DNA of 60,301 nt from Candidatus Falkowbacteria bacterium (GCA_963747695.1 CAVVFV010000002.1:1-60301), one strand, 5' to 3'; counted from the first letter of the stretch, positions 19,322 through 34,731 are shown. A program made the numbers and translations. The notes: generated by a model from the letters alone, not told the origin.

Positions 19322-19434
19322 GAATTAAGAGATAAGAGAGCATAAGAGGGCTTTTAAACAGCTCTTTTATTATTGGCAAAAATGAAGTAAATAAGTTATA
19401 ATTAGTGTATCGAGCGATCGAGAATGGGTTTTTT

Positions 19435-19456
19435 TCTTATCTCTTCTCTCTTAATT
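19435..19456. repeat. 22-nt CT-rich repeat, copy 1
   Basis: tcttatctcttctctcttaatt is identical to 40534-40555. A partial inverted partner, aagaattaagaga, lies at 19320-19332. Confidence 0.85.
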
Positions 19457-19468
19457 CTTATCTTATAT

Positions 19469-22400
19469 ATGGCTAATTCCAAATCAATCGAAGAACTGAT
19501 CAAATCTTCCCAGGGCAAACCGATGGCGGACGAATCGGCCGAGGCCAAATTCGCCAAAAAGCAGGAGGAGATCAAGATCAAAGAAATCGAACACCAAACC
19601 GCCGAGCGCGCCGCCGCCGCCGGATTGCCTTATATCGATCTTTTCGGTTTTCCGGTCAGTCCGGAAGCGATCGCTTTGATCCCGGAGGCCGATGCCACCC
19701 GATTGCAGATCATTTGTTTTTTTTATGACGGCAATGACGCGCGCATCGCCGTGATGGATCCGTCCTTGCCGGAGATCGGGCCGATCGGAGAAAGGATCGC
19801 CCACGATTACCATGTTAAGGTGGCGTTTTATATGATCTCTTCGCATAGTTTTGATTATGCCATCAAAATCTACGATACTTTGCCTAAGATCATCCGCCAA
19901 AATCGGGGAGTCGATATTACCGAAGAAGAATTGGATAAATTCAAAACTTATATCGAGGATTACCGGAGTTTGGGGCAGAAGGTCAACGAGGTCAACACCA
20001 CCGATGTCATCACTCTGATTCTGGCCACGGCTTTGAAAATGGATTCGAGCGATTTGCATATCGAGGCCGAGGAAAAAGGGATCGCGGTGCGCGTCCGTGT
20101 CGACGGAGTCTTGTACGAAGCGGCGGTGATCGACAAGGAAAAATGGAAACAGATAATTTCCCGCTTGAAGCTTTTGGCCAGAGTCAAAATCAACATTACC
20201 GATAAGCCGCAGGACGGCCGGTTCACGATTTTCTTGACCAAGGAAAAGATCGAAGTGAGAGTTTCTTTCCTGCCCACCAATTACGGCGAGAGCGTCGTCA
20301 TCCGCCTGCTGCGGCCCGGGTCGATCAGCGTCGGTTTTGAAAAATTAGGTTTGCGCCCCAAGGCCTGGGAAATTTTGGAAAGAGAGATCAGCAAACCGAA
20401 CGGTATGGTGCTCGCCACCGGACCGACCGGTTCGGGTAAAACCACCACGCTTTACGCGATCTTGCGGAAGATTAATCAGCCGGGAATGAAGATCATCACT
20501 CTGGAAGACCCGATCGAATATCAATTAGAAGGGATCAACCAAAGCCAGATCGAACCTTCGAAAGGCTACACTTTTGCCAGCGGTCTGCGGTCGATCTTGC
20601 GCCAGGATCCGGATGTGATCATGGTCGGCGAAATCCGCGATCTGGAAACGGCCGAGACTGCGATCCAGGCCGCCCTGACCGGACATATGGTTCTGTCGAC
20701 TTTGCATACCAACGACGCCGCCGGCGTGCTGCCCCGGCTGATCGATATGGGAGTCAAACCTTATTTTATGACGCCGTCGATCAATTGCATCATCGGCCAG
20801 CGCTTGGTGCGCCAGCTTTGTCCCGAATGCCGGATCGAGCATCTTCTTAATGAAGAAGAAAAACAGAAATTGGAAAAGATCCTCGCCGTCGTCTCGGCTA
20901 AATCCGGCGAAGACATCCCGACGGTGCTCCCTAAGATCTATCAGGCCGGCCCCGGTTGCAAGGCTTGCAACGGCATCGGCTATAAAGGCCGCCTGGGAAT
21001 TTACGAACTTTTGACGATGACCGAGTCGATCAAACAATTGGCGACGGACAATGCCCCGGCTTTCAAGATTTTGGAAGCGGCGATCGAGGATGGCATGCTG
21101 ACCATGCTGCAAGACGGCGTCTTCAAAGTTCTCGACGGTCTGACTTCTTTGGATGAAGTTTATCGCGTCATCGGCAAAACCGATTACATCGACGCGCTTT
21201 ATGATATCGTCATTTCCAAAACTTTCGGCCACGGCATCAAAGTTACCGAGGCGGATATGGCGCGAGTCGACGAGATCGCCGCTGATCCGGCGACCATGAA
21301 TGCCAAAGCCGGCCGCGTTCCCTCCAGCGAAATTCTCAATCTGGTGATGGCGCTGGCTCTCAAAGACGACGCCGGTGATGTGCATATCGAGCCGACCGAA
21401 GGCGACGTCAAGATCAGATTCCGGATCGATGGGATCCTCCATGATGTTTTCAGCTTGTCCAAGGAACATTATTTGCCGCTCTTGTCGCAAGTAAAAATTT
21501 CTTCCGGCTTCCCGACCAATGTCAAAAAAGCCACCTGGGATGGCCGCTTCGGCATTTTCCTTAAAGATAAAAAAATCGATTGCCGCATTTCCATAATTTC
21601 GGGAGGCTACGGCGAGACGGTCGTGATCCGCGTTTTGGCAGCCCAGGCGGAAAGCCTGGATCTGGAAAAATTGGGTATGCGGTCGTATGCGCTTGATCCG
21701 GTCAAACGTTCGATGGCCAAGACCAAAGGCGTGATCATCAACACCGGTCCGACCGGTTCGGGTAAAACCACCACGCTCTACGCAATTCTGAACGCTTTGA
21801 ATAAACCGGACGTCAAAATAATCACGGTCGAAGATCCGATCGAATATCATCTTCCCGGCGTGATGCAGACGCAGATTGATCCGGAACAAGGCTATACTTT
21901 TGCCGCCGCGATGCGCTCCCTTTTGCGCCAGAATCCGAACATCATGATGATCGGCGAAATCCGCGATGAGGAAACCGCCAAGATCGCCATCGAGGCTTCG
22001 CTGACCGGTCACTTGGTCTTATCGACTATCCATGCCAACACGGCGGCGACCGCGATTTCCCGCTTTGCCGGGCTGGGAGTCGGCGCGCAGATGCTCGCTT
22101 CAGCGGTGGAATGTACGATCGGCCAGCGCCTGGTCCGGAAAAATTGTCCCTTTTGCAAAGCGGAAATAAAAATATCGGCGGAGCAAATGACGGAAGTAAA
22201 AAAGATCCTGGCTTCGATCTCGCCGCTGGCAAAAATAAAAATCCCCAAAGAATTGAAATTCTATCAGGGCCAGGGCTGCGCCAAGTGCAACGGTCTGGGC
22301 TATAAAGGAAGATTGGGAATTTACGAGACGATCGAGATGATTCCGGAGATGCAGAAAAAGATCCAGGAAACGAACGTCACCGCTTTTGATATCGAGCAGG

Positions 22401-22501
22401 AAGCCATCAAGCACGGCACGGTAACGATGATCCAAGACGGCGTCCTCAAAGCGCTCGATGGCGAGACGAGTATTGAGGAAGTATTCCGTGTGGTTGAATA
22501 A
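19469..22501 (+). CDS. Tandem-fused type II/IV secretion (GspE/PilB-family) ATPase with two complete ATPase modules
   Basis: An N-terminal MshEN/T2SSE_N-like region is followed by two copies of Walker A GPTGSGKTTTLYA (nt 20420-20446 and 21746-21772). There are also two Walker B/Asp boxes (VIMVGEIRD, IMMIGEIRD), two His boxes (TGHMVLSTLHTN, TGHLVLSTIHAN) and two tetra-Cys motifs (CPEC..CKACNG, CPFC..CAKCNG). The start could instead be ATG 19424. Confidence 0.9.
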   Translation: MANSKSIEELIKSSQGKPMADESAEAKFAKKQEEIKIKEIEHQTAERAAAAGLPYIDLFGFPVSPEAIALIPEADATRLQIICFFYDGNDARIAVMDPSLPEIGPIGERIAHDYHVKVAFYMISSHSFDYAIKIYDTLPKIIRQNRGVDITEEELDKFKTYIEDYRSLGQKVNEVNTTDVITLILATALKMDSSDLHIEAEEKGIAVRVRVDGVLYEAAVIDKEKWKQIISRLKLLARVKINITDKPQDGRFTIFLTKEKIEVRVSFLPTNYGESVVIRLLRPGSISVGFEKLGLRPKAWEILEREISKPNGMVLATGPTGSGKTTTLYAILRKINQPGMKIITLEDPIEYQLEGINQSQIEPSKGYTFASGLRSILRQDPDVIMVGEIRDLETAETAIQAALTGHMVLSTLHTNDAAGVLPRLIDMGVKPYFMTPSINCIIGQRLVRQLCPECRIEHLLNEEEKQKLEKILAVVSAKSGEDIPTVLPKIYQAGPGCKACNGIGYKGRLGIYELLTMTESIKQLATDNAPAFKILEAAIEDGMLTMLQDGVFKVLDGLTSLDEVYRVIGKTDYIDALYDIVISKTFGHGIKVTEADMARVDEIAADPATMNAKAGRVPSSEILNLVMALALKDDAGDVHIEPTEGDVKIRFRIDGILHDVFSLSKEHYLPLLSQVKISSGFPTNVKKATWDGRFGIFLKDKKIDCRISIISGGYGETVVIRVLAAQAESLDLEKLGMRSYALDPVKRSMAKTKGVIINTGPTGSGKTTTLYAILNALNKPDVKIITVEDPIEYHLPGVMQTQIDPEQGYTFAAAMRSLLRQNPNIMMIGEIRDEETAKIAIEASLTGHLVLSTIHANTAATAISRFAGLGVGAQMLASAVECTIGQRLVRKNCPFCKAEIKISAEQMTEVKKILASISPLAKIKIPKELKFYQGQGCAKCNGLGYKGRLGIYETIEMIPEMQKKIQETNVTAFDIEQEAIKHGTVTMIQDGVLKALDGETSIEEVFRVVE

Positions 22502-26497: not shown

Positions 26498-27082
26498 ATG
26501 GCATCCACCGAAGCATTTTTAGAAAATGAAGCCGAACTCGTGGAAAAAGCCAAGGTCGATGACCAGGCTTTTAGTATTCTTTACCAGCATTATTTTCCCA
26601 AAATTTACGGCTACGTGCAGAAGCGGGTGGGCGGGCGGGAAACGGCGGAAGATATCGTCTCCCAGGTTTTCTTGAAGGCCTTCGGCCATCGGCAAAATTA
26701 TCAAAGCCGCGGTTTTTCTTTCGGCGCTTGGCTTTACCGCATCGCCACCAATGCTTTGACGGATCATTATCGCCGCCAGGGAACGCACGAGGAAACGGCG
26801 ATCACTGATGATCCGGCGCAAGAACCGGCCGGAGAAAATTTGACCGTCGAGCTGATGCAAAAAAGCGACCGGGCGGCCATCGAAAAGGTGTTGAAGAAAA
26901 TGCCGGAACGTTACCGCCAAGCGGTTCAGCTGCGTTATTTCGCGGAAATGGAAATCTTTGAGATCGCCGAAACTCTGCAACTCCCCAAAACGCACGTCTC
27001 GGTGATTTTGCATCGGGCTCTGCAATGTTTTCGGCAGCAGGCGGATAAGGCCGGGATAAAATTTTATCTCATCATTTTTTGA
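26498..27082 (+). CDS. RNA polymerase sigma-70 factor, ECF subfamily
   Basis: Region 2 (FPKIYGYVQKRVG..AEDIVSQVFLKAF, FGAWLYRIATNALTDHYRR) and region 4 (RYRQAVQLRYFAEMEIFEIAETLQLPKTHVSVILHRAL). Confidence 0.9.
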   Translation: MASTEAFLENEAELVEKAKVDDQAFSILYQHYFPKIYGYVQKRVGGRETAEDIVSQVFLKAFGHRQNYQSRGFSFGAWLYRIATNALTDHYRRQGTHEETAITDDPAQEPAGENLTVELMQKSDRAAIEKVLKKMPERYRQAVQLRYFAEMEIFEIAETLQLPKTHVSVILHRALQCFRQQADKAGIKFYLIIF

Positions 27083-27185: not shown

Positions 27186-30100
27186 ATGACTGAACAATTT
27201 AAACAAACAGCCGGGAGTGAGAACGAAACCGAGCGTAATAAAGCTGAAGCTGAGGCGTTATCAAAAGCAGAGGCCAAGATTAAAAACCTCGCTTTTAAAG
27301 ATGAGCCGGCCGCACCGAATTTCCGGGAAGGTTTAGCCAATCGGATCCTGGCGGCACGCCATCAGCATTTTTCTATGTCCGAATTTTTCGCCAAGCTCGC
27401 CCGCGGTTTGATTTTTATGTTTGACGCCAAGGCTTTTGTTCCAGCCGTGGTCACTTTTTTGATTCTTGCCGTCGGATTGGGCTTGGTCTATTCTCATCTG
27501 CCGCTGCCGCAGGTAGCCGTCAGTAATCCCTGGGGGAAAATTTCCCAGCTGCTTATCAACCCGGCTTACGCCCAGGATGATTTTTCCGCCGTGGCCACTA
27601 TTTCCGACAGCCTGGGCGTGGCGGCTGACACGGCCTTTATCGTCAAAAGCAAAGAGGTGATTGATGAACAGACGCTTAGAGCCAATCTCACCCTGCAACC
27701 GGCGACGGATTTCACTTTGACTAAGATCGACGACAATACATATAAAGTAACGCCCGCGCAAACCCTGGCGCAAAAGAAAGTTTATACTCTTAAGATCGCC
27801 AGCGCTTATATCGATCAAAGCGGCGCCACGGTCGAGCGCGATTATTCCTGGGCTTTCCAGATAAAAGATATCTTCAAGGTCTTGAGTTCGATTCCGGCCA
27901 ATCAAGCCACCGCTGTTCCGCTGGATGCTGGCATCGAAGTAACTTTTTCCGATGAAAATTTCACCAACTACGAACAGGCGTTCAAGATCGAACCGGCCGT
28001 CTCGGGCCATTTTGAAGTCCACAAACGGACTTTGGTTTTCGTTCCCAAAGCATTGGCCGCCGGGACGATCTATACCGTAACTATCGATAAGGACGCCTTG
28101 AAAGTTACGGGCAGCGAGGCCAAATTGGCGGAAAATTATGTAATCAAATTTGAAACCGATCCGGCCGGCATTAAGCGCGGCGAGTATTCCGAATTCAATT
28201 GGCAAAATTCTTTTAATGAAGTTTATACCGACCGCCAGCCGGCGCTGGCCGTCAACATCTATAATATCAATCAAGCGCAATTCCCCATCGAAGTCTATGC
28301 TTTTGCTAACGTCGATGATTTTGTCGCGGCCCTGCAAAAATCCGAAAAAGTCCCTTATTGGGCCGAGTATAATCGTACCGTTTACAATACCGATGTTTCG
28401 TCTCTGACCAAGGTTGCATCGTTTTCCGTGCCGCTGTCGCCTTACGGCTATAATCAATATTTGGTTTTCCCCGACCAATTAAGCAAAGGTTTTTACGTGG
28501 TGCAGGTCAATATCAACGGCGTTAAGATCCAGACCTTCGTGGAAGTTTCCGATCTGACCGATTACACTTCGGTGACCGATAACAATACCCTGGTCTGGTT
28601 GAATGACATCCGCACCAAAAAGCCGGTCGCGGGAGCGAAAGTGGAAGTTATCGGTTCGGACAAACAGGCTGTCACCGGCAAAGACGGCACGGCTGTCTTG
28701 CCGACTTCCTGGCTCAACACCGGCGAGGATGCTAACCGCAATTATTTATTGATTGACGCCGGCGACAAAACTATCGTGCCGCTCGATTTCAATTGCCAAG
28801 ACTGCGCTCCGCAGGGCGTGGCGCGGACTCCTTCCGGCGCCGATTATTGGAATTATTTTTATACGGACCGGATGACTTACGAACCGGGCGATACGGTCAG
28901 CTATTGGGGATTTATCCAGCCGCGGGCCGGAGCGGTGAGCACTTCGACGGTCACGCTTAAATTATTCGGCGGGCAAGATTATTATGATTATTATGACAAC
29001 CCCATTCCGCTTTTACAGACTTCGGCGGCGATTGGCGCTGATTTCACTTTCAGCGGCGCGATTCCCTTGAGCACCCTGTCGGTCGGCTATTACCATCTGC
29101 AATATTATATCGGCGATAATGAGATCGGCAGCCGGGATTTCGCCATCGAAACATACGTTAAGCCGCCTTATAAATTAGTCGCCACCACGAGCCGGCAGGC
29201 TGTTTTCGCCGGCAGCAGCGAAACCATCACGGTGGCGGCCAACTTTTTTGAAGGCACGCCCGTGCCGAATCTGGCCTTGCAGGAAACGGGCGATACCGGA
29301 CAACTCAAGACTGATAGCCAGGGCAAAGTCGTAAAAACTTTTTCCGTCAATCGCGTCTCCGGCGATTACGGCAGCAATTGCAATTATTTTTATCCGGTCG
29401 CGTCCGAAGAATCCGATATCTCCACTTACGCTTGTTATACCGTTTTCAATTACAGCGTCGTTCCGCAAGGCGAATTGGCCAAGGTCGACGGTACCAACCA
29501 GGAAAAACTGCAGTTGACCGTGAAGAAAGTCGATCTCGCCGCGGCCAACGTCGCCGGGGCGACCGAGGATCAATTCTTGCACGAAGCGGCGCCCGGACTT
29601 GCCTTAACCGGGACCATCACCGAAATTTCCTATCAAGCCGTCGATACCGGCCAATACTATGATTTTGTCAATAAGGTGGTGCGCCATACTTATAGTTATA
29701 ATCCGGTCAGCACTAATATCGGCTCCTTCACCGGGACGACTGATTCGTCCGGCGGTTTCCAATATTCCTTTGCCGCTCAGCCGCAGCATAGTTACGTGGT
29801 TGATGTCACCATCAAGAATAGCGACGGCCAAGAGATCAGTGAAAAGTACGAATCTTATTACAGCCAGTATAGCTTTGATAATCAAGGCGACTATTATAAT
29901 CTGGCTTTCAAAGATCCAAAGCAGACGGCCTTTTCCATCGGCGATCACGTGGCGATCCAGTATTACAACAAGGACCAGGTTTTGCCGGATGGCGCCGGCC
30001 AATTCCTTTATTATCGGCTGGCCAACGGTTTGGTCGATTATCAGATCAGCGGCAGCGCCGAATATGATTTTAATTTTGAACAGCGTTTTCTGCCCGGCGT

Positions 30101-32765
30101 TTACGTGATGGGGGTTTATTTCGACGGCGAGACTTATCATCGGCCCGGGTCGGCGGATTATTGGTCGGGAATGTCCTCAGGGCTTTACGTTCCCTTTAAG
30201 AAAACCGACCGGCAATTGAAAGTCGAAGTGACGCCGGATCAGGATAAGTATCAGCCCGGCGGCGAGGTTAAACTTAACGTCAAAGTTTCCGATCAGCACG
30301 GAAAACCGGTGGCCGCCGCGGTCAATCTCAATCTGGTCGACGAATCTTATTACGCGATTTATCCGGAAAGCGTTGATCCTTTGGGAGGATTGTATGGCAA
30401 TGCCGTCGAGAGCGGCGAATTGACTTCCTATATTTCCAATCCGGCGCCCAACATCGGTTCCGAGGGCGCGGAACGGGGCGGCTGCTTCCTGGGCGGCACC
30501 AAGATAACCATGGCCGATCACTCGGTAAAAAATATCGAAGATATCAAGGTCGGCGATGAGCTACTCACTTTTACCAACGAAACGGCGAAGAGTTTGGTCC
30601 CGGAAAAAGTAACCAAGACTTACGCTTATGAAGTCGACGAATATCTGGTGATCAACGATAAATTGAAGATTACGCCGGTCCATCGCGTTTTTTTGAACGG
30701 CCAATGGCAGATGATCGGCCAGGCCAAGGTCGGCGACTGGCTGCTTGATGAAAATGGCGAAAAAGTGAAGATTACCAAGATCGAAGATAAACGCGGCGTG
30801 TTCAAGGTTTACAATTTGACCGTCGAACCTTATCATACTTTTTTTGCCGAAGGATTCTATGTCCATAACGACAAAGGCGGCGGCGTCCGTTCGCTATTCG
30901 TGGACACGGCGGTGTTCTTGAACGTAAATACCGGCGCCGACGGGATGGCCACCGCCGATTTTAAATTGCCGGATAATATAACTTCCTGGCGCGTCACCGC
31001 GCAGGCGCTTACCGGCGGTCTATCCGCCGGTTATAAAGTCATTGATCTCAAATCGTCCTTGCCCGCCTTCGTCAATACCACTTTTGCCCATGAATATCTG
31101 ACCGTGGATAAACCGGTCGTGAAAGCGCGGGCTTTCGGCGATGCGCTGCATAATGCCGATCCGGTGCAATTCAAGATGGAGGCGCCGACGCTGGGATTTT
31201 CCAGCTCGACGACCGGCCAGGCTTTTACCGCCGCTTATTTCCAATTGCCGCAATTATCGGCCGGCGAGCAATCAATCACTACTTCGATCGCCGCCGATGG
31301 CTACCAGGACGCGGTTTTGGAAAAAATAAATGTGCTCGATACGCGTTTTCGGGAAACAAAAACCAACTTCTATGCTCTCTCGGCCGCTCTTAAGCCGGCC
31401 GGGGCGAGCGACGGCCAAACTGATCTTTTCTTCAGCGACCAGAACCAGGGCCGGTTCTATGACCAGCTTTCTTATTGCTATTATTGTTCGGCCGGCGACC
31501 GCGTCGATCAGAAATTGGCGCGGGTAGTTTCAGCGCAATTGCGGCAAAAATATTTCGGCGAAGCAAATCCCGCTCCGGAAAATTTCGACGGCTCGCTTTA
31601 TCAGACCGATGACGGCGGCATCGCTTTGCTGCCTTACGCTTCTTCGGATCTGGAATTATCGGCTAAAGTCGCTTTCATCGCCGGCAGTTACTTCGATCAG
31701 GTCAGATTGACCAATTATTTTTACCAGATCCTTTCGGCCGACGATTCGACGGGCGAGCAAGTGGGCATCGCCCTCTTCGCCTTGAGCGGTTTGGGTGAAC
31801 CGGTTTTGACGCAGGCGGAAAATTACGCCGCTTTGCCCGATCTCACCGTCAAAGAAAAATTGTATATCGGCATCGCCCTGGATCAGCTGGGCGACGCGGA
31901 AACGGCCCGTGATATTTATCTCGGCGTGATGAAAGATTATGGCGAAAAATTAGATCCCTATCTGCGCTTGAAAGTTTCCAATGACAATGATGAAATTTTG
32001 GCGGCGACCTCTTTGGCGGCAATTCTCGCCGGCAGCTTGGGGATTTCCGATCATGAGCAGCTCTGGAATTATGTGGAGAATAATTATGCCCAAGAGACCT
32101 TGATCGATCTGGAAAAATTGATCTATGTCCAGGAAACTCTGCCTAAGCTGACCCCGGGCACCGCTTCCTTTACCATCAATCTTCCCGGGCAAAAGATCGA
32201 CAAATCCCTCGCCCACGGCGAAAGCTTTCATCTCTCCGTCAGCCCGGCGGAACTGGCGGCGATTTCTTTCAGCAACATCAAGGGGCAGATCGGTTTGACC
32301 AGCTCTTATGAAGAACGCGAGACCAATATCGCGCCTCAGAATAATTCCTATGTTTCGCTCCAGCGGGAGTATTACGTCAACGGAGTTAAGACCGATACTT
32401 TCCACGACGGCGATCTGGTGGAAATCAGGATGACCCCGTCTTTTACGGCCGGCGCGCTTAATTCCGATTATCAGATCACGGACCTGCTTCCTTCCGGACT
32501 CGCTTTGATGTCCAATCTTTATACCCGCGGCGGCAGCTATTCCTGCAATGATTATTTCCCATATGAGGTCGACGGCCAGACGGTAAAATTCTCGATTGGC
32601 AAGGATTGGACCAGTTATAACGGCTGCCATAATGATTATTTCAGCTATTTCGCCCGCGTCGTCAATCCGGGCGAATATAAAGCCGAACCGGCGGTGATCC
32701 AGTCGTTTGAATCGGCTGGCGTCAAGAATTATACCGGTTCGGACACGGTCTTGATCGAAAAATAA
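27186..32765 (+). CDS. Giant membrane-anchored alpha-2-macroglobulin-family protein (no thioester motif) containing a Hint module
   Basis: An ~80-aa cytoplasmic N-terminus and one TM helix (VPAVVTFLILAVGLGLVY) come first. Then SbsA/Big_5-like Ig domains and an MG2-like LKVEVTPDQDKYQPGGEVKLNVKV. The A2M-domain signature FLNVNTGADGMATADFKLPDNITSWRVTAQAL and a C-terminal ITDLLPSGLALMSN (bMG10-like) follow. No CxEQ found. Confidence 0.8.
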   Translation: MTEQFKQTAGSENETERNKAEAEALSKAEAKIKNLAFKDEPAAPNFREGLANRILAARHQHFSMSEFFAKLARGLIFMFDAKAFVPAVVTFLILAVGLGLVYSHLPLPQVAVSNPWGKISQLLINPAYAQDDFSAVATISDSLGVAADTAFIVKSKEVIDEQTLRANLTLQPATDFTLTKIDDNTYKVTPAQTLAQKKVYTLKIASAYIDQSGATVERDYSWAFQIKDIFKVLSSIPANQATAVPLDAGIEVTFSDENFTNYEQAFKIEPAVSGHFEVHKRTLVFVPKALAAGTIYTVTIDKDALKVTGSEAKLAENYVIKFETDPAGIKRGEYSEFNWQNSFNEVYTDRQPALAVNIYNINQAQFPIEVYAFANVDDFVAALQKSEKVPYWAEYNRTVYNTDVSSLTKVASFSVPLSPYGYNQYLVFPDQLSKGFYVVQVNINGVKIQTFVEVSDLTDYTSVTDNNTLVWLNDIRTKKPVAGAKVEVIGSDKQAVTGKDGTAVLPTSWLNTGEDANRNYLLIDAGDKTIVPLDFNCQDCAPQGVARTPSGADYWNYFYTDRMTYEPGDTVSYWGFIQPRAGAVSTSTVTLKLFGGQDYYDYYDNPIPLLQTSAAIGADFTFSGAIPLSTLSVGYYHLQYYIGDNEIGSRDFAIETYVKPPYKLVATTSRQAVFAGSSETITVAANFFEGTPVPNLALQETGDTGQLKTDSQGKVVKTFSVNRVSGDYGSNCNYFYPVASEESDISTYACYTVFNYSVVPQGELAKVDGTNQEKLQLTVKKVDLAAANVAGATEDQFLHEAAPGLALTGTITEISYQAVDTGQYYDFVNKVVRHTYSYNPVSTNIGSFTGTTDSSGGFQYSFAAQPQHSYVVDVTIKNSDGQEISEKYESYYSQYSFDNQGDYYNLAFKDPKQTAFSIGDHVAIQYYNKDQVLPDGAGQFLYYRLANGLVDYQISGSAEYDFNFEQRFLPGVYVMGVYFDGETYHRPGSADYWSGMSSGLYVPFKKTDRQLKVEVTPDQDKYQPGGEVKLNVKVSDQHGKPVAAAVNLNLVDESYYAIYPESVDPLGGLYGNAVESGELTSYISNPAPNIGSEGAERGGCFLGGTKITMADHSVKNIEDIKVGDELLTFTNETAKSLVPEKVTKTYAYEVDEYLVINDKLKITPVHRVFLNGQWQMIGQAKVGDWLLDENGEKVKITKIEDKRGVFKVYNLTVEPYHTFFAEGFYVHNDKGGGVRSLFVDTAVFLNVNTGADGMATADFKLPDNITSWRVTAQALTGGLSAGYKVIDLKSSLPAFVNTTFAHEYLTVDKPVVKARAFGDALHNADPVQFKMEAPTLGFSSSTTGQAFTAAYFQLPQLSAGEQSITTSIAADGYQDAVLEKINVLDTRFRETKTNFYALSAALKPAGASDGQTDLFFSDQNQGRFYDQLSYCYYCSAGDRVDQKLARVVSAQLRQKYFGEANPAPENFDGSLYQTDDGGIALLPYASSDLELSAKVAFIAGSYFDQVRLTNYFYQILSADDSTGEQVGIALFALSGLGEPVLTQAENYAALPDLTVKEKLYIGIALDQLGDAETARDIYLGVMKDYGEKLDPYLRLKVSNDNDEILAATSLAAILAGSLGISDHEQLWNYVENNYAQETLIDLEKLIYVQETLPKLTPGTASFTINLPGQKIDKSLAHGESFHLSVSPAELAAISFSNIKGQIGLTSSYEERETNIAPQNNSYVSLQREYYVNGVKTDTFHDGDLVEIRMTPSFTAGALNSDYQITDLLPSGLALMSNLYTRGGSYSCNDYFPYEVDGQTVKFSIGKDWTSYNGCHNDYFSYFARVVNPGEYKAEPAVIQSFESAGVKNYTGSDTVLIEK
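30483..30869 (+). other. Hint (intein-like / BIL-type) domain embedded in the A2M-like ORF, 129 aa
   Basis: CFLGGTKITMADHS (block A, Cys1), ITPVH (TxxH, block B), VYNLTVEPYHTFFA (block F) and GFYVHN (block G). The next codon, 30870-30872, is GAC (Asp), not Cys/Ser/Thr. Confidence 0.8.
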
Positions 32766-32796: not shown

Positions 32797-34731
32797 ATGC
32801 CGGCTAGAAAAAAGTTTATCATTTTAGTTTCTGCTCTATGCGCATCGGCGGTCATTTTGGCCGCCGGTGCGTTTGTCTTGGAGAAGCAAACTCGTCCCGC
32901 GCCGCAGGCCGCCGCGGAGATCATCCCGGTGGCGGAGACGGTCGATACTTTTCCCTATGATCACGATCTTTTCAACGAGGTGATCAGTAAGAATTATGCC
33001 GACCGGATGGCGACGAGCGGCCCGGTGGTGGCCGGACTTGTCCCGCATCATGATCTGGCCGGATCGCTCGCGGCGGAATTTTTTTCTTCGTTGGCGCAAA
33101 AACAAAAGGTCAAGAATTTTATCATCATCGGCCCGCTGCATTCCGACCAGTCCCTCGCCCCGATCATTTCCGGTCATTTTATTTGGGATGCGGGCTTCGC
33201 GCGCGTCGAAAATAATTATGCTATTCTCGACGAGCTGGTGAAAAGCGGTCTGGTCGTCTACAATGATCCGGCCGTTAAAACCGAGCACTCGCTTTATAAT
33301 ATGGTGCCGTTCATCGCCCACTATTTCCCGGAGGCGAAGATCGTGCCGATCGCTTTGACTTCGCATAATTCGCCCGAGCAATGTTTCGCCTTGGCGACCG
33401 CCTTGCAAAAATATCTGAAGCAAGGCGACACGGTCGTCGTCGCTTCGATCGATTTTTCCCATTATCTTCCTTCCGACCAGACGCCGGCCAAGAACGCCCG
33501 GATGATCGAGCTGATCAATGACCGCGATTATCAGACGATTTCCGGTTTGAAGAATGATTATTTGGATTCGCCGCCTTCGCTGATCACTCTGCTCCAAGCC
33601 GCGGATCTCTCCGGCGCGAGAGTTAATATTTTGCAGTCGACCAATTCCGGAGAGATCACCGGGACGCCCTATCTTTCTTCAACGAGTTACGTCAGCGCTT
33701 TTTTTGCCGCCCCCCTCCTTTCCAAGGAGGGGTCTCTCGGTGGTTCGGCAACGGGAGTACCGGGAGACAATTCCACAAGTGCGTTCCTGCCGACTGCCGC
33801 TAATAATCCGCTCAAGCTGCTTTTTTTCGGCGACATCATGCTTGACCGCCACGTGGGTGAAAAGATCAAAGCCGCGGGAAATTTGGACTGGATATTTTCC
33901 GCCCTGGATCGGGCCGGTATTTTTGCCGGCAACGATCTGGTTTCCGCCAATCTGGAAGGCGCGGTAACCGATAACGGCGCGCACTATCCGCCGACCTTGT
34001 CGATTGATTTTGCCTTTACGCCGGCACTGGTCGGCCAATTGGCCAAATATGATTTTAACTATTTCAATATCGCCAATAATCATTTAGCCGATCAGGGCAA
34101 AAATGGTATAATAGAGACAGAAAAAAATTTGGCCGATCTGGGTTTTGCTTTTGCCGGTTGTGCTGACCGGCAAATCGGTGATTGCACTTCGAAGATCATC
34201 CAGAAAAACGGCCGCCGGATCGGACTCGTCGGCGCCAGCATGGTTTACGGGTCGCTCGATGAAAAAGCGCTGCTTAGTCAGGTTAAAGAATTGGCGAGTA
34301 CGACCGATTTGGTCGTTGCGCAAATGCACTGGGGCACGGAATATCAGCACGCGGCCAACAAAAATCAGATCAGTCTGGCGCATCAGTTGATCGATGCCGG
34401 CGCCGATCTGGTTATCGGAACGCACCCGCATGTTGTCGAAGGCATTGAGATCTATAAAGATAAACCGATTTTTTATTCCTTGGGCAATTTCGTCTTTGAC
34501 CAATATTTTTCTACCGATACCCAGCAAGAATTGGGCGTGCAGATTACCGCTGATGGCAATGATTTTAAAATCGATCTCTTACCGATCGAATCCGAAGCTT
34601 CCCAGCTGCGCTTAATGAATGATCAAGAAAAAAATAAATTTTTATCCGAACTGGCTGGCTGGTCAATCGGCAGCGAAGATTTAAAAAATGAAATAAGAAG
34701 CGGTATAATACAAGTAAAAAGTAATAAGTAA
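32797..34731 (+). CDS. Membrane-anchored fusion: MEMO1/AmmeMemoRadiSam-B-like domain + CapA (PGA_cap metallophosphatase-like) domain
   Basis: N-terminal TM helix. The Memo-like part has GLVPHHDLAG, IIIGPLH, TEHSLYNMVPF and SIDFSHY. The CapA-like part has LLFFGDIMLDR, ANLEGAV, NIANNHLAD, AQMHWGTEY and GTHPHVVEGIE. The junction carries a palindromic element (33712-33732). Confidence 0.75.
   Translation: MPARKKFIILVSALCASAVILAAGAFVLEKQTRPAPQAAAEIIPVAETVDTFPYDHDLFNEVISKNYADRMATSGPVVAGLVPHHDLAGSLAAEFFSSLAQKQKVKNFIIIGPLHSDQSLAPIISGHFIWDAGFARVENNYAILDELVKSGLVVYNDPAVKTEHSLYNMVPFIAHYFPEAKIVPIALTSHNSPEQCFALATALQKYLKQGDTVVVASIDFSHYLPSDQTPAKNARMIELINDRDYQTISGLKNDYLDSPPSLITLLQAADLSGARVNILQSTNSGEITGTPYLSSTSYVSAFFAAPLLSKEGSLGGSATGVPGDNSTSAFLPTAANNPLKLLFFGDIMLDRHVGEKIKAAGNLDWIFSALDRAGIFAGNDLVSANLEGAVTDNGAHYPPTLSIDFAFTPALVGQLAKYDFNYFNIANNHLADQGKNGIIETEKNLADLGFAFAGCADRQIGDCTSKIIQKNGRRIGLVGASMVYGSLDEKALLSQVKELASTTDLVVAQMHWGTEYQHAANKNQISLAHQLIDAGADLVIGTHPHVVEGIEIYKDKPIFYSLGNFVFDQYFSTDTQQELGVQITADGNDFKIDLLPIESEASQLRLMNDQEKNKFLSELAGWSIGSEDLKNEIRSGIIQVKSNK
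33712..33732. repeat. GC-rich palindrome CCCCTCCTT-TCC-AAGGAGGGG inside a CDS (domain junction)
   Basis: Nine-bp arms, translated in frame as PLLSKEG. Homologous to 48085-48105. Confidence 0.9.

Follow-up and report, generated by a model that had tools for sequence, protein, structure and literature searches.

A stretch of 60,301 nucleotides from a Candidatus Falkowbacteria bacterium (GCA_963747695.1, CAVVFV010000002.1:1-60301), referred to here as the window, encodes a membrane-anchored, thioester-less protein of the alpha-2-macroglobulin (A2M) type, 1859 amino acids (aa) in length, which carries a Hint domain of 129 aa (residues 1100-1228) in the loop that corresponds to the bait region of the Escherichia coli A2M. 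As judged from sequence comparison, this domain appears to be a catalytically competent type-A bacterial intein-like (BIL) domain, fixed and vertically inherited in the bait loop. In the explanation favoured here, which we consider probable, the domesticated BIL cuts itself out once the protein has been exported, so that the bait loop is opened and the flanks of the domain stay cut. In the A2M family, a cut in the bait loop starts everything that follows, while in this case the loop carries its own putative self-processing enzyme.

The translation of 30483-30890 reads CFLGGTKI...ITPVH...VYNLTVEPYHTFFAEGFYVHN, followed by DKGGGVR, and contains every catalytic block of a Hint domain: Cys1100 as the first residue, Thr1163 and His1166 in block B, Asn1210 in block F and the terminal pair His1227-Asn1228. 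The residue at +1 is Asp1229 (GAC, 30870-30872). A previous reading of the window, made from its sequence alone (the sequence-only reading), had quoted these motifs and positions and proposed a Hint module without a +1 nucleophile, all of which is borne out by the translation and by profile searches. In fact, the domain matched the Pfam profile PT-HINT (PF07591) with an E-value of 7.8e-16 (59 bits, cut-off 27.7), Vint (PF14623) with 34.5 bits (cut-off 27) and the NCBIfam profile intein_Cterm (TIGR01443) with 29.4 bits (cut-off 15.6), matches which are far above the chance level. Type-A BIL domains are defined in sequence by Cys1, a C-terminal His-Asn and the lack of a +1 nucleophile (PMC4031507), and all of these are found here, in the form of Cys1100, the block-B TxxH, His1227-Asn1228 and the Asp at +1. 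Among sequences of solved structures, the best match was BIL2 of Tetrahymena (6TMM/6Y75, E 1e-11), in an alignment which opens at RGG/C (the slash marking the start of the domain), so that residues -3 to -1 (RGG) also match BIL2, while the BIL of Clostridium thermocellum (2LWY) was found with an E-value of 1e-8.

The fold pointed in the same direction. A dedicated AlphaFold2 (AF2) model covering aa 1080-1248 gave the Hint domain a predicted local distance difference test (pLDDT) score of 89-98, and comparison of this model with Foldseek placed BIL2 (6Y75) first by E-value, with a template-modelling (TM) score of 0.80, a root-mean-square deviation (rmsd) of 2.1 A and 31% identity; the corresponding figures for the BIL 2LWY were a TM score of 0.85, an rmsd of 1.8 A and 30% identity. 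Mini-inteins ranked under the BILs, with 15-27% identity, and these and the Hedgehog Hog domain gave TM scores of 0.7-0.8. A position on the BIL/PT-HINT side of the superfamily is thus supported both by the profile matches and by the predicted structure, and the kinship with BIL domains raised in the sequence-only reading agrees with BIL2 and the C. thermocellum BIL being the nearest solved sequences and folds. Scanning the window for further Hint domains revealed none besides 30483-30869. As regards base composition, the Hint segment has a G+C content of 45.7%, against 53-54% in the 500 bases on either side and 50.9% in the whole gene, which may be due to a Lys/Ile/Asn-rich composition or to a foreign origin.

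The protein into which the domain is inserted has Pfam matches over the cut-off for Big_5, A2M_BRD and A2M, and under the cut-off for MG2, bMG3 and bMG10 (MG, macroglobulin). The A2M match (PF00207) covers residues 1241-1299 and begins at profile position 1; an A2M signature directly after the module had also been noted previously. By contrast, the segment upstream, LKVEV...NVKV, which had been called MG2-like, corresponds to an MG-type strand segment (aa 1011-1034) inside the A2M_BRD match, and by analogy with the Escherichia coli A2M (ECAM) would be part of the MG domain that hosts the bait, and not MG2. When the profile of the protein family was compared with the sequences of the PDB, an E-value of 3e-34 was obtained, the alignment covering the C-terminal region of ECAM too. 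A second AF2 model, built for aa 700-1859 (window 29283-32762) from a 43-sequence alignment, had a mean pLDDT of 84.7; with Foldseek its best match was ECAM (5A42, E 5e-39), together with the Salmonella A2M (4U48), and matches with a probability of 1.00 included ECAM, the Salmonella A2M, A2ML1, CD109, TEP1 and C5. Sequence profiles and model together support the assignment of the protein to the A2M/TEP superfamily, with a thioester-less A2M fold. The TM score of the model was about 0.40 to activated A2Ms (4RTD, 4ZIQ and active CD109; protease or methylamine) and about 0.25 to the native ones (5A42 and 4U48), a nearness which may be a modelling artefact or may indicate that the predicted resting state of the family is 'activated-like'.

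No CxEQ thioester motif is present anywhere in the 1859 residues, as had been claimed, and among 103 family members it was found only once, at residue 12 of a protein where it has no relevance, while 12 of 17 distant TED-bearing A2Ms (P0104-P0120) have it. The domain equivalent to the TED is nevertheless recognizable in the AF2 model as eleven helices (model residues 722-955). Near its start a G-D-R-V-D-Q motif is found, in which Arg1439 is conserved in 101, Asp1441 in 94 and Gln1442 in 81 of the 103 family members; it stands about where the G-C-x-E-Q of thioester A2Ms would be expected. This sequence pattern suggests that an Arg/Asp pair replaces the Cys/Gln thioester pair in the TED-like domain.

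As to topology, the Kyte-Doolittle maximum falls on aa 83-102, with 13 Lys/Arg residues before this helix and one after it (aa 104-140). Since the positive charges lie on the N-terminal side of a single transmembrane helix, the N-terminus should be inside and the C-terminus outside, and the A2M body and the Hint domain should therefore be extracellular. A scan of the N-terminal 138 aa against Pfam gave no match; a motif F-x-E-x-L-x3-IL, conserved in homologues from the Candidate Phyla Radiation (CPR), precedes the helix.

The insertion site was mapped by alignment of the 103 family members. In relatives without a Hint domain the loop reads ...GAE[GRK]GG-GGG-VRxxFxDxAxF, while in Hint-bearing proteins it reads ...GAExGG / C...HN / [DEQ]K-GGG-VRxxFxDxAxF (slashes marking the domain boundaries), that is, a clean insertion in a Gly-rich loop. 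The survey of homologues for the insert, which the sequence-only reading had put forward as a check, produced both kinds of relatives with the same loop. The linker before the domain (aa 1080-1099) has a pLDDT below 50 in both AF2 models and, with aa 1229-1235, makes up the sole low-confidence parts near the domain in either of them. The family profile aligns the insertion loop with LRFGGDGDELKRGGK, which corresponds to residues 945-959 of E. coli K-12 YfhM (ECAM; its CLEQ is at 1187), and VRxxFxDxAxF with the ECAM sequence just after the bait. The family profile was needed for this, as searches of the PDB with single sequences (48 aa before and 177 aa after the Hint domain) gave no match. In ECAM, MG8 harbours the bait-region domain, Arg923-Leu942 is disordered after cleavage by elastase, and Arg956 is bound to the C-terminal MG domain once the bait has been cut (PMC4498604); residues 945-959 adjoin the disordered segment and include Arg956. 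The alignment of the loop with this segment, taken together with the ECAM bait data, therefore places the Hint domain within the bait region, as had been proposed.

The arrangement is not an oddity of one protein. A search with the full-length sequence returned some 50 homologues with a Hint domain, 1714-1927 aa long and with identities as low as 31%, the named ones being Patescibacteria (Uhrbacteria, Magasanikbacteria and Nomurabacteria), as well as a sister set that lacks the domain (about 1600-1750 aa). The Hint domain alone as query of a word-index homologue search gave 6 proteins and was uninformative, and an exhaustive HMMER search was used instead, which yielded 292 cluster representatives at E <1e-30; the top 150 of them included 87 newly listed single-Hint proteins, all but one A2M-like and with the same flanks, and in the 43 of these 87 that were tallied both Cys1 and His-Asn were always present (43/43 each). 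A scan of GTDB, with one genome per species, gave at least 579 relatives, and in all of the best 80 loci, to which the GTDB locus figures given here refer, the Hint domain is present at the same loop. Named relatives among these 80 are all Patescibacteria, a few records being apparently mislabelled; the names comprise Parcu-, Uhr-, Magasanik-, Morani-, Falkow-, Peregrini-, Collier-, Portnoy-, Dojka-, Gracili-, Kerfeld-, Doudna-, Sacchari- and Peribacteria. A subgroup with a YWNP motif also has named members of the CPR (Levybacteria and Parcubacteria). The A2M/Hint module pointed out earlier in this one protein is thus real, but what had been seen as a peculiarity of the protein is, from these sequence surveys, a conserved trait of a large A2M-like family of Patescibacteria.

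Residue conservation was counted over 49 aligned Hint-bearing proteins. Gly-1, Cys1, Thr1163, His1166, Asn1210, His1227, Asn1228 and Lys+2 are present in every one, whereas the +1 residue varies (Asp in 24, Glu in 16, Gln in 6, Ser in 2 and Ala in 1). In the 80 GTDB loci the catalytic residues and Gly-1 are kept as well (the C-terminal profile alignment failed in one), and a Lys is found at +2 or +3 in all of them, while the loop of the Hint-less relatives is almost Lys-free in the printed alignments. On the N-terminal side Ala (46/49), Glu (47/49) and Gly-2 (46/49) form a motif AExGG which is kept in Hint-less relatives, and on the C-terminal side R1235, F1238 and D1240 do not vary (49/49). 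The mean identity of the Hint domain is 49%, against 37% for the host protein, and the two diverge in parallel (Pearson 0.79). In a crude neighbour-joining tree, a few Hint-less proteins are nested among the Hint-bearing ones.

Outside the A2M-like family, the nearest Hint relatives (P0127-P0263; for instance P0130, P0146, P0157 and P0131) are secreted or surface proteins with 2-12 Hint domains in tandem, separated by spacers of only K-G(1-4) in the form ...GGG/C...HN/KGG/C...HN/K...; some of the arrays come directly after an apparent signal peptide, and some of the proteins have a Tim44-like domain or a pilin-type N-methylation motif. A close relative with 83% identity, the 165-aa fragment P0121, has ...GAKRAFSSLGGTKITMADHS... 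in place of ...GAERGGCFLGGTKITMADHS... in the window and an unrelated end, and is probably a frameshifted or misassembled copy without Cys1.

In the self-excision that we consider probable, the protein would be exported with its N-terminus left in the cytoplasm and would fold outside, where Cys1100 would attack the carbonyl of Gly1099 in an N-to-S acyl shift, giving a thioester. Asn1228 would then cyclise, breaking the Asn1228-Asp1229 bond, and the Hint domain would depart, leaving the bait loop open without the intervention of an outside protease. Because the catalytic residues of the N-terminal and of the C-terminal side are both invariant, both junction reactions would seem to be under selection. 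Type-A BILs mainly cleave, with some splicing by attack of an amine on the thioester (PMC4031507, PMC7664689), and self-excision is favoured because those without a +1 nucleophile behave predominantly in this way, which also agrees with what had been stated about BILs in the sequence-only reading. In the same manner, since there is no Cys, Ser or Thr at +1, the main product expected would be two chains, the membrane-anchored 1-1099 and 1229-1859, although a fraction, or possibly all, of the molecules might be relinked via Lys1230 or the new alpha-amine of Asp1229. The two chains would be held together by the bait-hosting MG domain, by analogy with ECAM, as in cleaved A2Ms and complement C3. 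Cleaved proteins of the A2M family remain one particle. It follows from this, and from the location of the ECAM bait domain within an MG domain, that a release of the C-terminal half, as previously suggested, is unsupported, a two-chain molecule being likelier; the length given for that half (some 630 aa) was right, the count being 631. Similarly, the idea that the module acts where host proteases normally do was an assumption, a role as protease inhibitor being hypothetical for this thioester-less family.

Several considerations weigh against self-excision with open ends. It is by analogy with ECAM that strands before and after the loop are assigned to one MG domain; the loop of Hint-less relatives is continuous, so that the mature function would seem to need no obvious break; the invariance of the Lys at +2/+3 is left unexplained by simple cleavage and would fit a ligation better; and presence or absence with exact boundaries, as seen in the crude tree, would also be expected of a splicing intein. 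Some of these lead to a lysine-directed splicing, a possible outcome although not the one to be expected, in which the epsilon-amine of Lys1230 or the alpha-amine of Asp1229 would resolve the Gly1099 thioester intramolecularly, the Hint domain would be lost and the halves would be connected again, either by a normal peptide bond or by a Gly-Lys isopeptide branch. The mature protein would then be a single chain whose loop resembles that of the Hint-less relatives, the latter being continuous and of the size expected after such a ligation. The constancy of the Lys (at +2 in 49/49 proteins, at +2/+3 in 80/80 loci) while the +1 residue may be D, E, Q, N, S or A, its near absence from Hint-less loops and the frequent Lys at +1 in the related tandem-Hint proteins (HN/K) all speak for this, as does the RGG shared with BIL2 at -3 to -1; for BIL2, section 2.4 of PMC8616854 describes an isopeptide between the epsilon-amine of a lysine of the downstream domain and a C-terminus, and type-A BILs can splice through amine attack (PMC4031507). 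Nevertheless, cleavage was the dominant reaction of those type-A BILs that have been assayed (PMC4031507, PMC7664689), the shift of the Lys between +2 and +3 is loose for a precisely placed nucleophile, and mere self-removal offers no obvious benefit that would account for retention in 80/80 loci and for the high conservation. Alternatively, the thioester at Cys1100 could be captured by a second molecule through one of its amines or hydroxyls (a host-cell protein, a protease that attacks, or amines of the cell wall or of lipids), the anchored fragment of 1099 residues becoming covalently attached through its C-terminal Gly in a reaction standing in for that of CxEQ. This we hold to be improbable. 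The whole family is without CxEQ, yet the Hint domain would necessarily make a thioester in the bait loop; the Gly-Gly at -2/-1 would be an unhindered acyl donor; CPR bacteria have been characterized as epibionts that possess large surface proteins (PMC8080830); and BIL2 is reported, in the account given in PMC8616854, to conjugate other proteins, Ras for instance, with the flank on its N-terminal side. But CxEQ is missing throughout the family, with or without the Hint domain, which can therefore not be a simple substitute for the thioester; the invariant C-terminal His-Asn would not be needed for a transfer to another molecule; and a Hint thioester, being neither shielded nor triggered as that of a TED is, would hydrolyse. 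A wider proposal, in which the domain would act as thioester generator of the bait loop and as lysine-directed ligase, donating the anchored fragment to Lys1230 or to foreign lysines, possibly with a link to the extracytoplasmic function (ECF) sigma factor through the cytoplasmic tail, is regarded as rather unlikely.

The exact boundaries and the few Hint-less proteins nested among Hint-bearing ones could also mean that the domain is the remnant of a selfish mini-intein, which would have invaded the loop, would splice harmlessly without any function for the host and would be slowly disappearing; the Ser at +1 in P0056, P0059, L035 and L037 would permit canonical splicing, and the G+C content under that of the flanks would also fit. 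However, there is no homing endonuclease, a domain of 129 aa leaving no room for one, the +1 nucleophile is missing in about 95% of the members, and the domain sits in a flexible loop, not in a conserved active site, of an extracytoplasmic protein that is non-essential; moreover, the domain is conserved above its host and kept in the 80/80 best GTDB loci over many CPR classes, and the window has no other Hint domain. There is consequently little to recommend this explanation. A canonical class 1 intein was rejected, given the Asp at +1 and the location in a disordered Gly-rich loop, and so was a Hedgehog/Hog domain, as the terminal His-Asn is present, the A2M domain comes directly after and the Hedgehog-type profile PF01079 gave just 17.7-19.2 bits, under its cut-off. 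Finally, PT-HINT is the best Pfam family and NCBI names P0002, P0029, P0034 and P0037 'polymorphic toxin-type HINT domain-containing protein', as would suit a pre-toxin HINT domain releasing a C-terminal toxin; but the 631 aa after the domain are a conserved A2M/TED-like/MG10-like part common to the Hint-less relatives, and the next gene is a conserved Memo-family gene and not an immunity gene, on which grounds this candidate was rejected as hardly credible. Self-excision of a domesticated type-A BIL therefore continues to be the explanation that we favour.

Features of the A2M-like gene and its neighbours (window positions; + strand)
Feature	Position	Strand	Residues	Remarks
ECF-type sigma-70 gene	26498..27082	+		directly upstream of the A2M-like gene
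A2M-like host gene	27186..32765	+	1-1859	membrane-anchored, thioester-less
Putative cytoplasmic tail and single transmembrane helix	27186..27494	+	tail 1-82, helix 83-102	range drawn to aa 103
A2M_BRD match	29922..30356	+	913-1057	PF07703, 34.5 bits, cut-off 22.7
Linker before the Hint domain	30423..30482	+	1080-1099	predicted disordered; ends A-E-x-G-G; Gly1099 is -1
Hint domain, type-A BIL kind	30483..30869	+	1100-1228	candidate self-processing domain
C-terminal flank, Asp1229-Lys1230-Gly-Gly-Gly	30870..30884	+		no +1 nucleophile; Lys at +2; short linker, predicted disordered
VRxxFxDxAxF motif and start of the A2M domain	30885..31082	+		A2M fold resumes after the bait loop
TED-like helical domain	31446..32147	+	1421-1654	without thioester
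C-terminal MG domain (bMG10-like)	32355..32705	+		PF17973, E 0.0038, under cut-off
Memo-family and PGA_cap fusion gene	32797..34731	+		membrane-anchored product; downstream of the A2M-like gene

The A2M-like gene, the ECF sigma gene and the Memo-family gene form a three-gene module. The product of the sigma gene matches Sigma70_r2 (68 bits), Sigma70_r4 (43 bits) and Sigma70_ECF (21.8 bits) in Pfam; such a gene is likewise found upstream in the loci of P0018 and P0039 and in about 36 of the 80 GTDB loci, and in relatives (Uhrbacteria and others) it frequently extends into the start of the A2M gene. From this adjacency and from the conserved F-x-E-x-L-x3-IL motif, the cytoplasmic tail of the A2M-like protein may be an anti-sigma element. 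The product of the downstream gene has an N-terminal membrane anchor and matches Memo (87 bits) and PGA_cap (CapA-like, 199 bits). A Memo gene lies 3' of the A2M-like gene in about 55 of the 80 GTDB loci, in the Hint-bearing relatives examined and in one examined Hint-less locus (P0069), loci L001, L003 and L004 being among those covered; in the locus of P0056, radical SAM genes flank the A2M-Memo pair. Elsewhere in the window (19424-22501), a T2SSE type II/IV secretion ATPase of 1025 aa is encoded; the T2SSE profile matches it twice, and a P-loop region is found at about aa 320-368 and another at about 766-803, so that from its sequence it looks like a tandem or fused double ATPase.

BIL domains and the A2M fold are each well studied, and what is new is that the two are combined, in a conserved manner that is suggestive as to mechanism; the combination is found in at least 80 genomes at species level, of which the named ones are all Patescibacteria. 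Among the papers searched, none joins alpha-2-macroglobulin with a Hint domain or intein in the sense of the bait loop, and one CPR paper, on the Vampirococcus genome, deals with membrane proteins with A2M domains, comparable in length (1895 aa) to the present one, and mentions no Hint domain. If the cleavage proposed were true, this would be an A2M-fold protein which activates or matures itself. If the ligation to lysine were true, it would mean isopeptide-forming protein splicing in bacteria, so far reported only for the ciliate BIL, and if the transfer to foreign proteins were true, CPR epibionts would gain a chemistry of covalent capture or adhesion independent of the TED thioester. Cleavage or ligation, if true, would provide a rare functional clue to the giant surface proteins of uncultured CPR bacteria, and the compact domain of 129 aa is also of interest for protein engineering.

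Compared with known systems, the type-A BIL of C. thermocellum (2LWY) resembles the domain described here in having Cys1, TxxH and His-Asn with no Cys, Ser or Thr at +1, in its length of about 130 aa, in lacking an endonuclease and in being part of a secreted or surface bacterial protein. The present domain differs from type-A BILs in being fixed at one site of one protein family throughout a superphylum, that site being the A2M bait loop, and in its flanks, with Gly-Gly at -2/-1 and Lys at +2/+3. BIL2 of Tetrahymena thermophila, from the polyubiquitin-like locus BUBL1, shares the N-terminal flank ending in RGG, and a downstream lysine is implicated as its nucleophile in PMC8616854; it is, however, eukaryotic and cytoplasmic, has ubiquitin-like flanks and is reported to bind zinc through His residues, whereas the domain of the window would be extracytoplasmic, with A2M flanks.

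As for the host protein, type I A2Ms (ECAM/YfhM and the Salmonella protein) are like it in the ring of MG domains, the bait domain, the TED-like domain and the C-terminal MG domain, and in being membrane-anchored and extracytoplasmic. Unlike these, the host has no CxEQ, has a Hint domain in the bait loop, would be anchored by an N-terminal transmembrane helix instead of a lipoprotein anchor, and is encoded beside a sigma factor and a Memo gene, not PBP1c. Type II A2Ms (YfaS and the Pseudomonas MagD) also have an A2M fold without thioester, and JGI names some of the homologues 'YfaS (alpha-2-macroglobulin family)'; to our knowledge, no Hint domain has been reported in YfaS or MagD. The genes of the yfaP/Q/T/A or mag operons, which are known for type II A2Ms (see also PMC5764988), are not seen here, the neighbours being the sigma and Memo genes, and the present family has an N-terminal Big_5 domain. 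The VRxxFxDxAxF motif of the host, in turn, resembles the RxxFPExW motif after the bait/ANA region of the complement proteins C3, C4 and C5. In these proteins, too, the chain is cut at a place in the fold that matches the bait, and the pieces remain associated, but they possess the thioester, and the cuts are the work of furin and convertases instead of a domain of their own.

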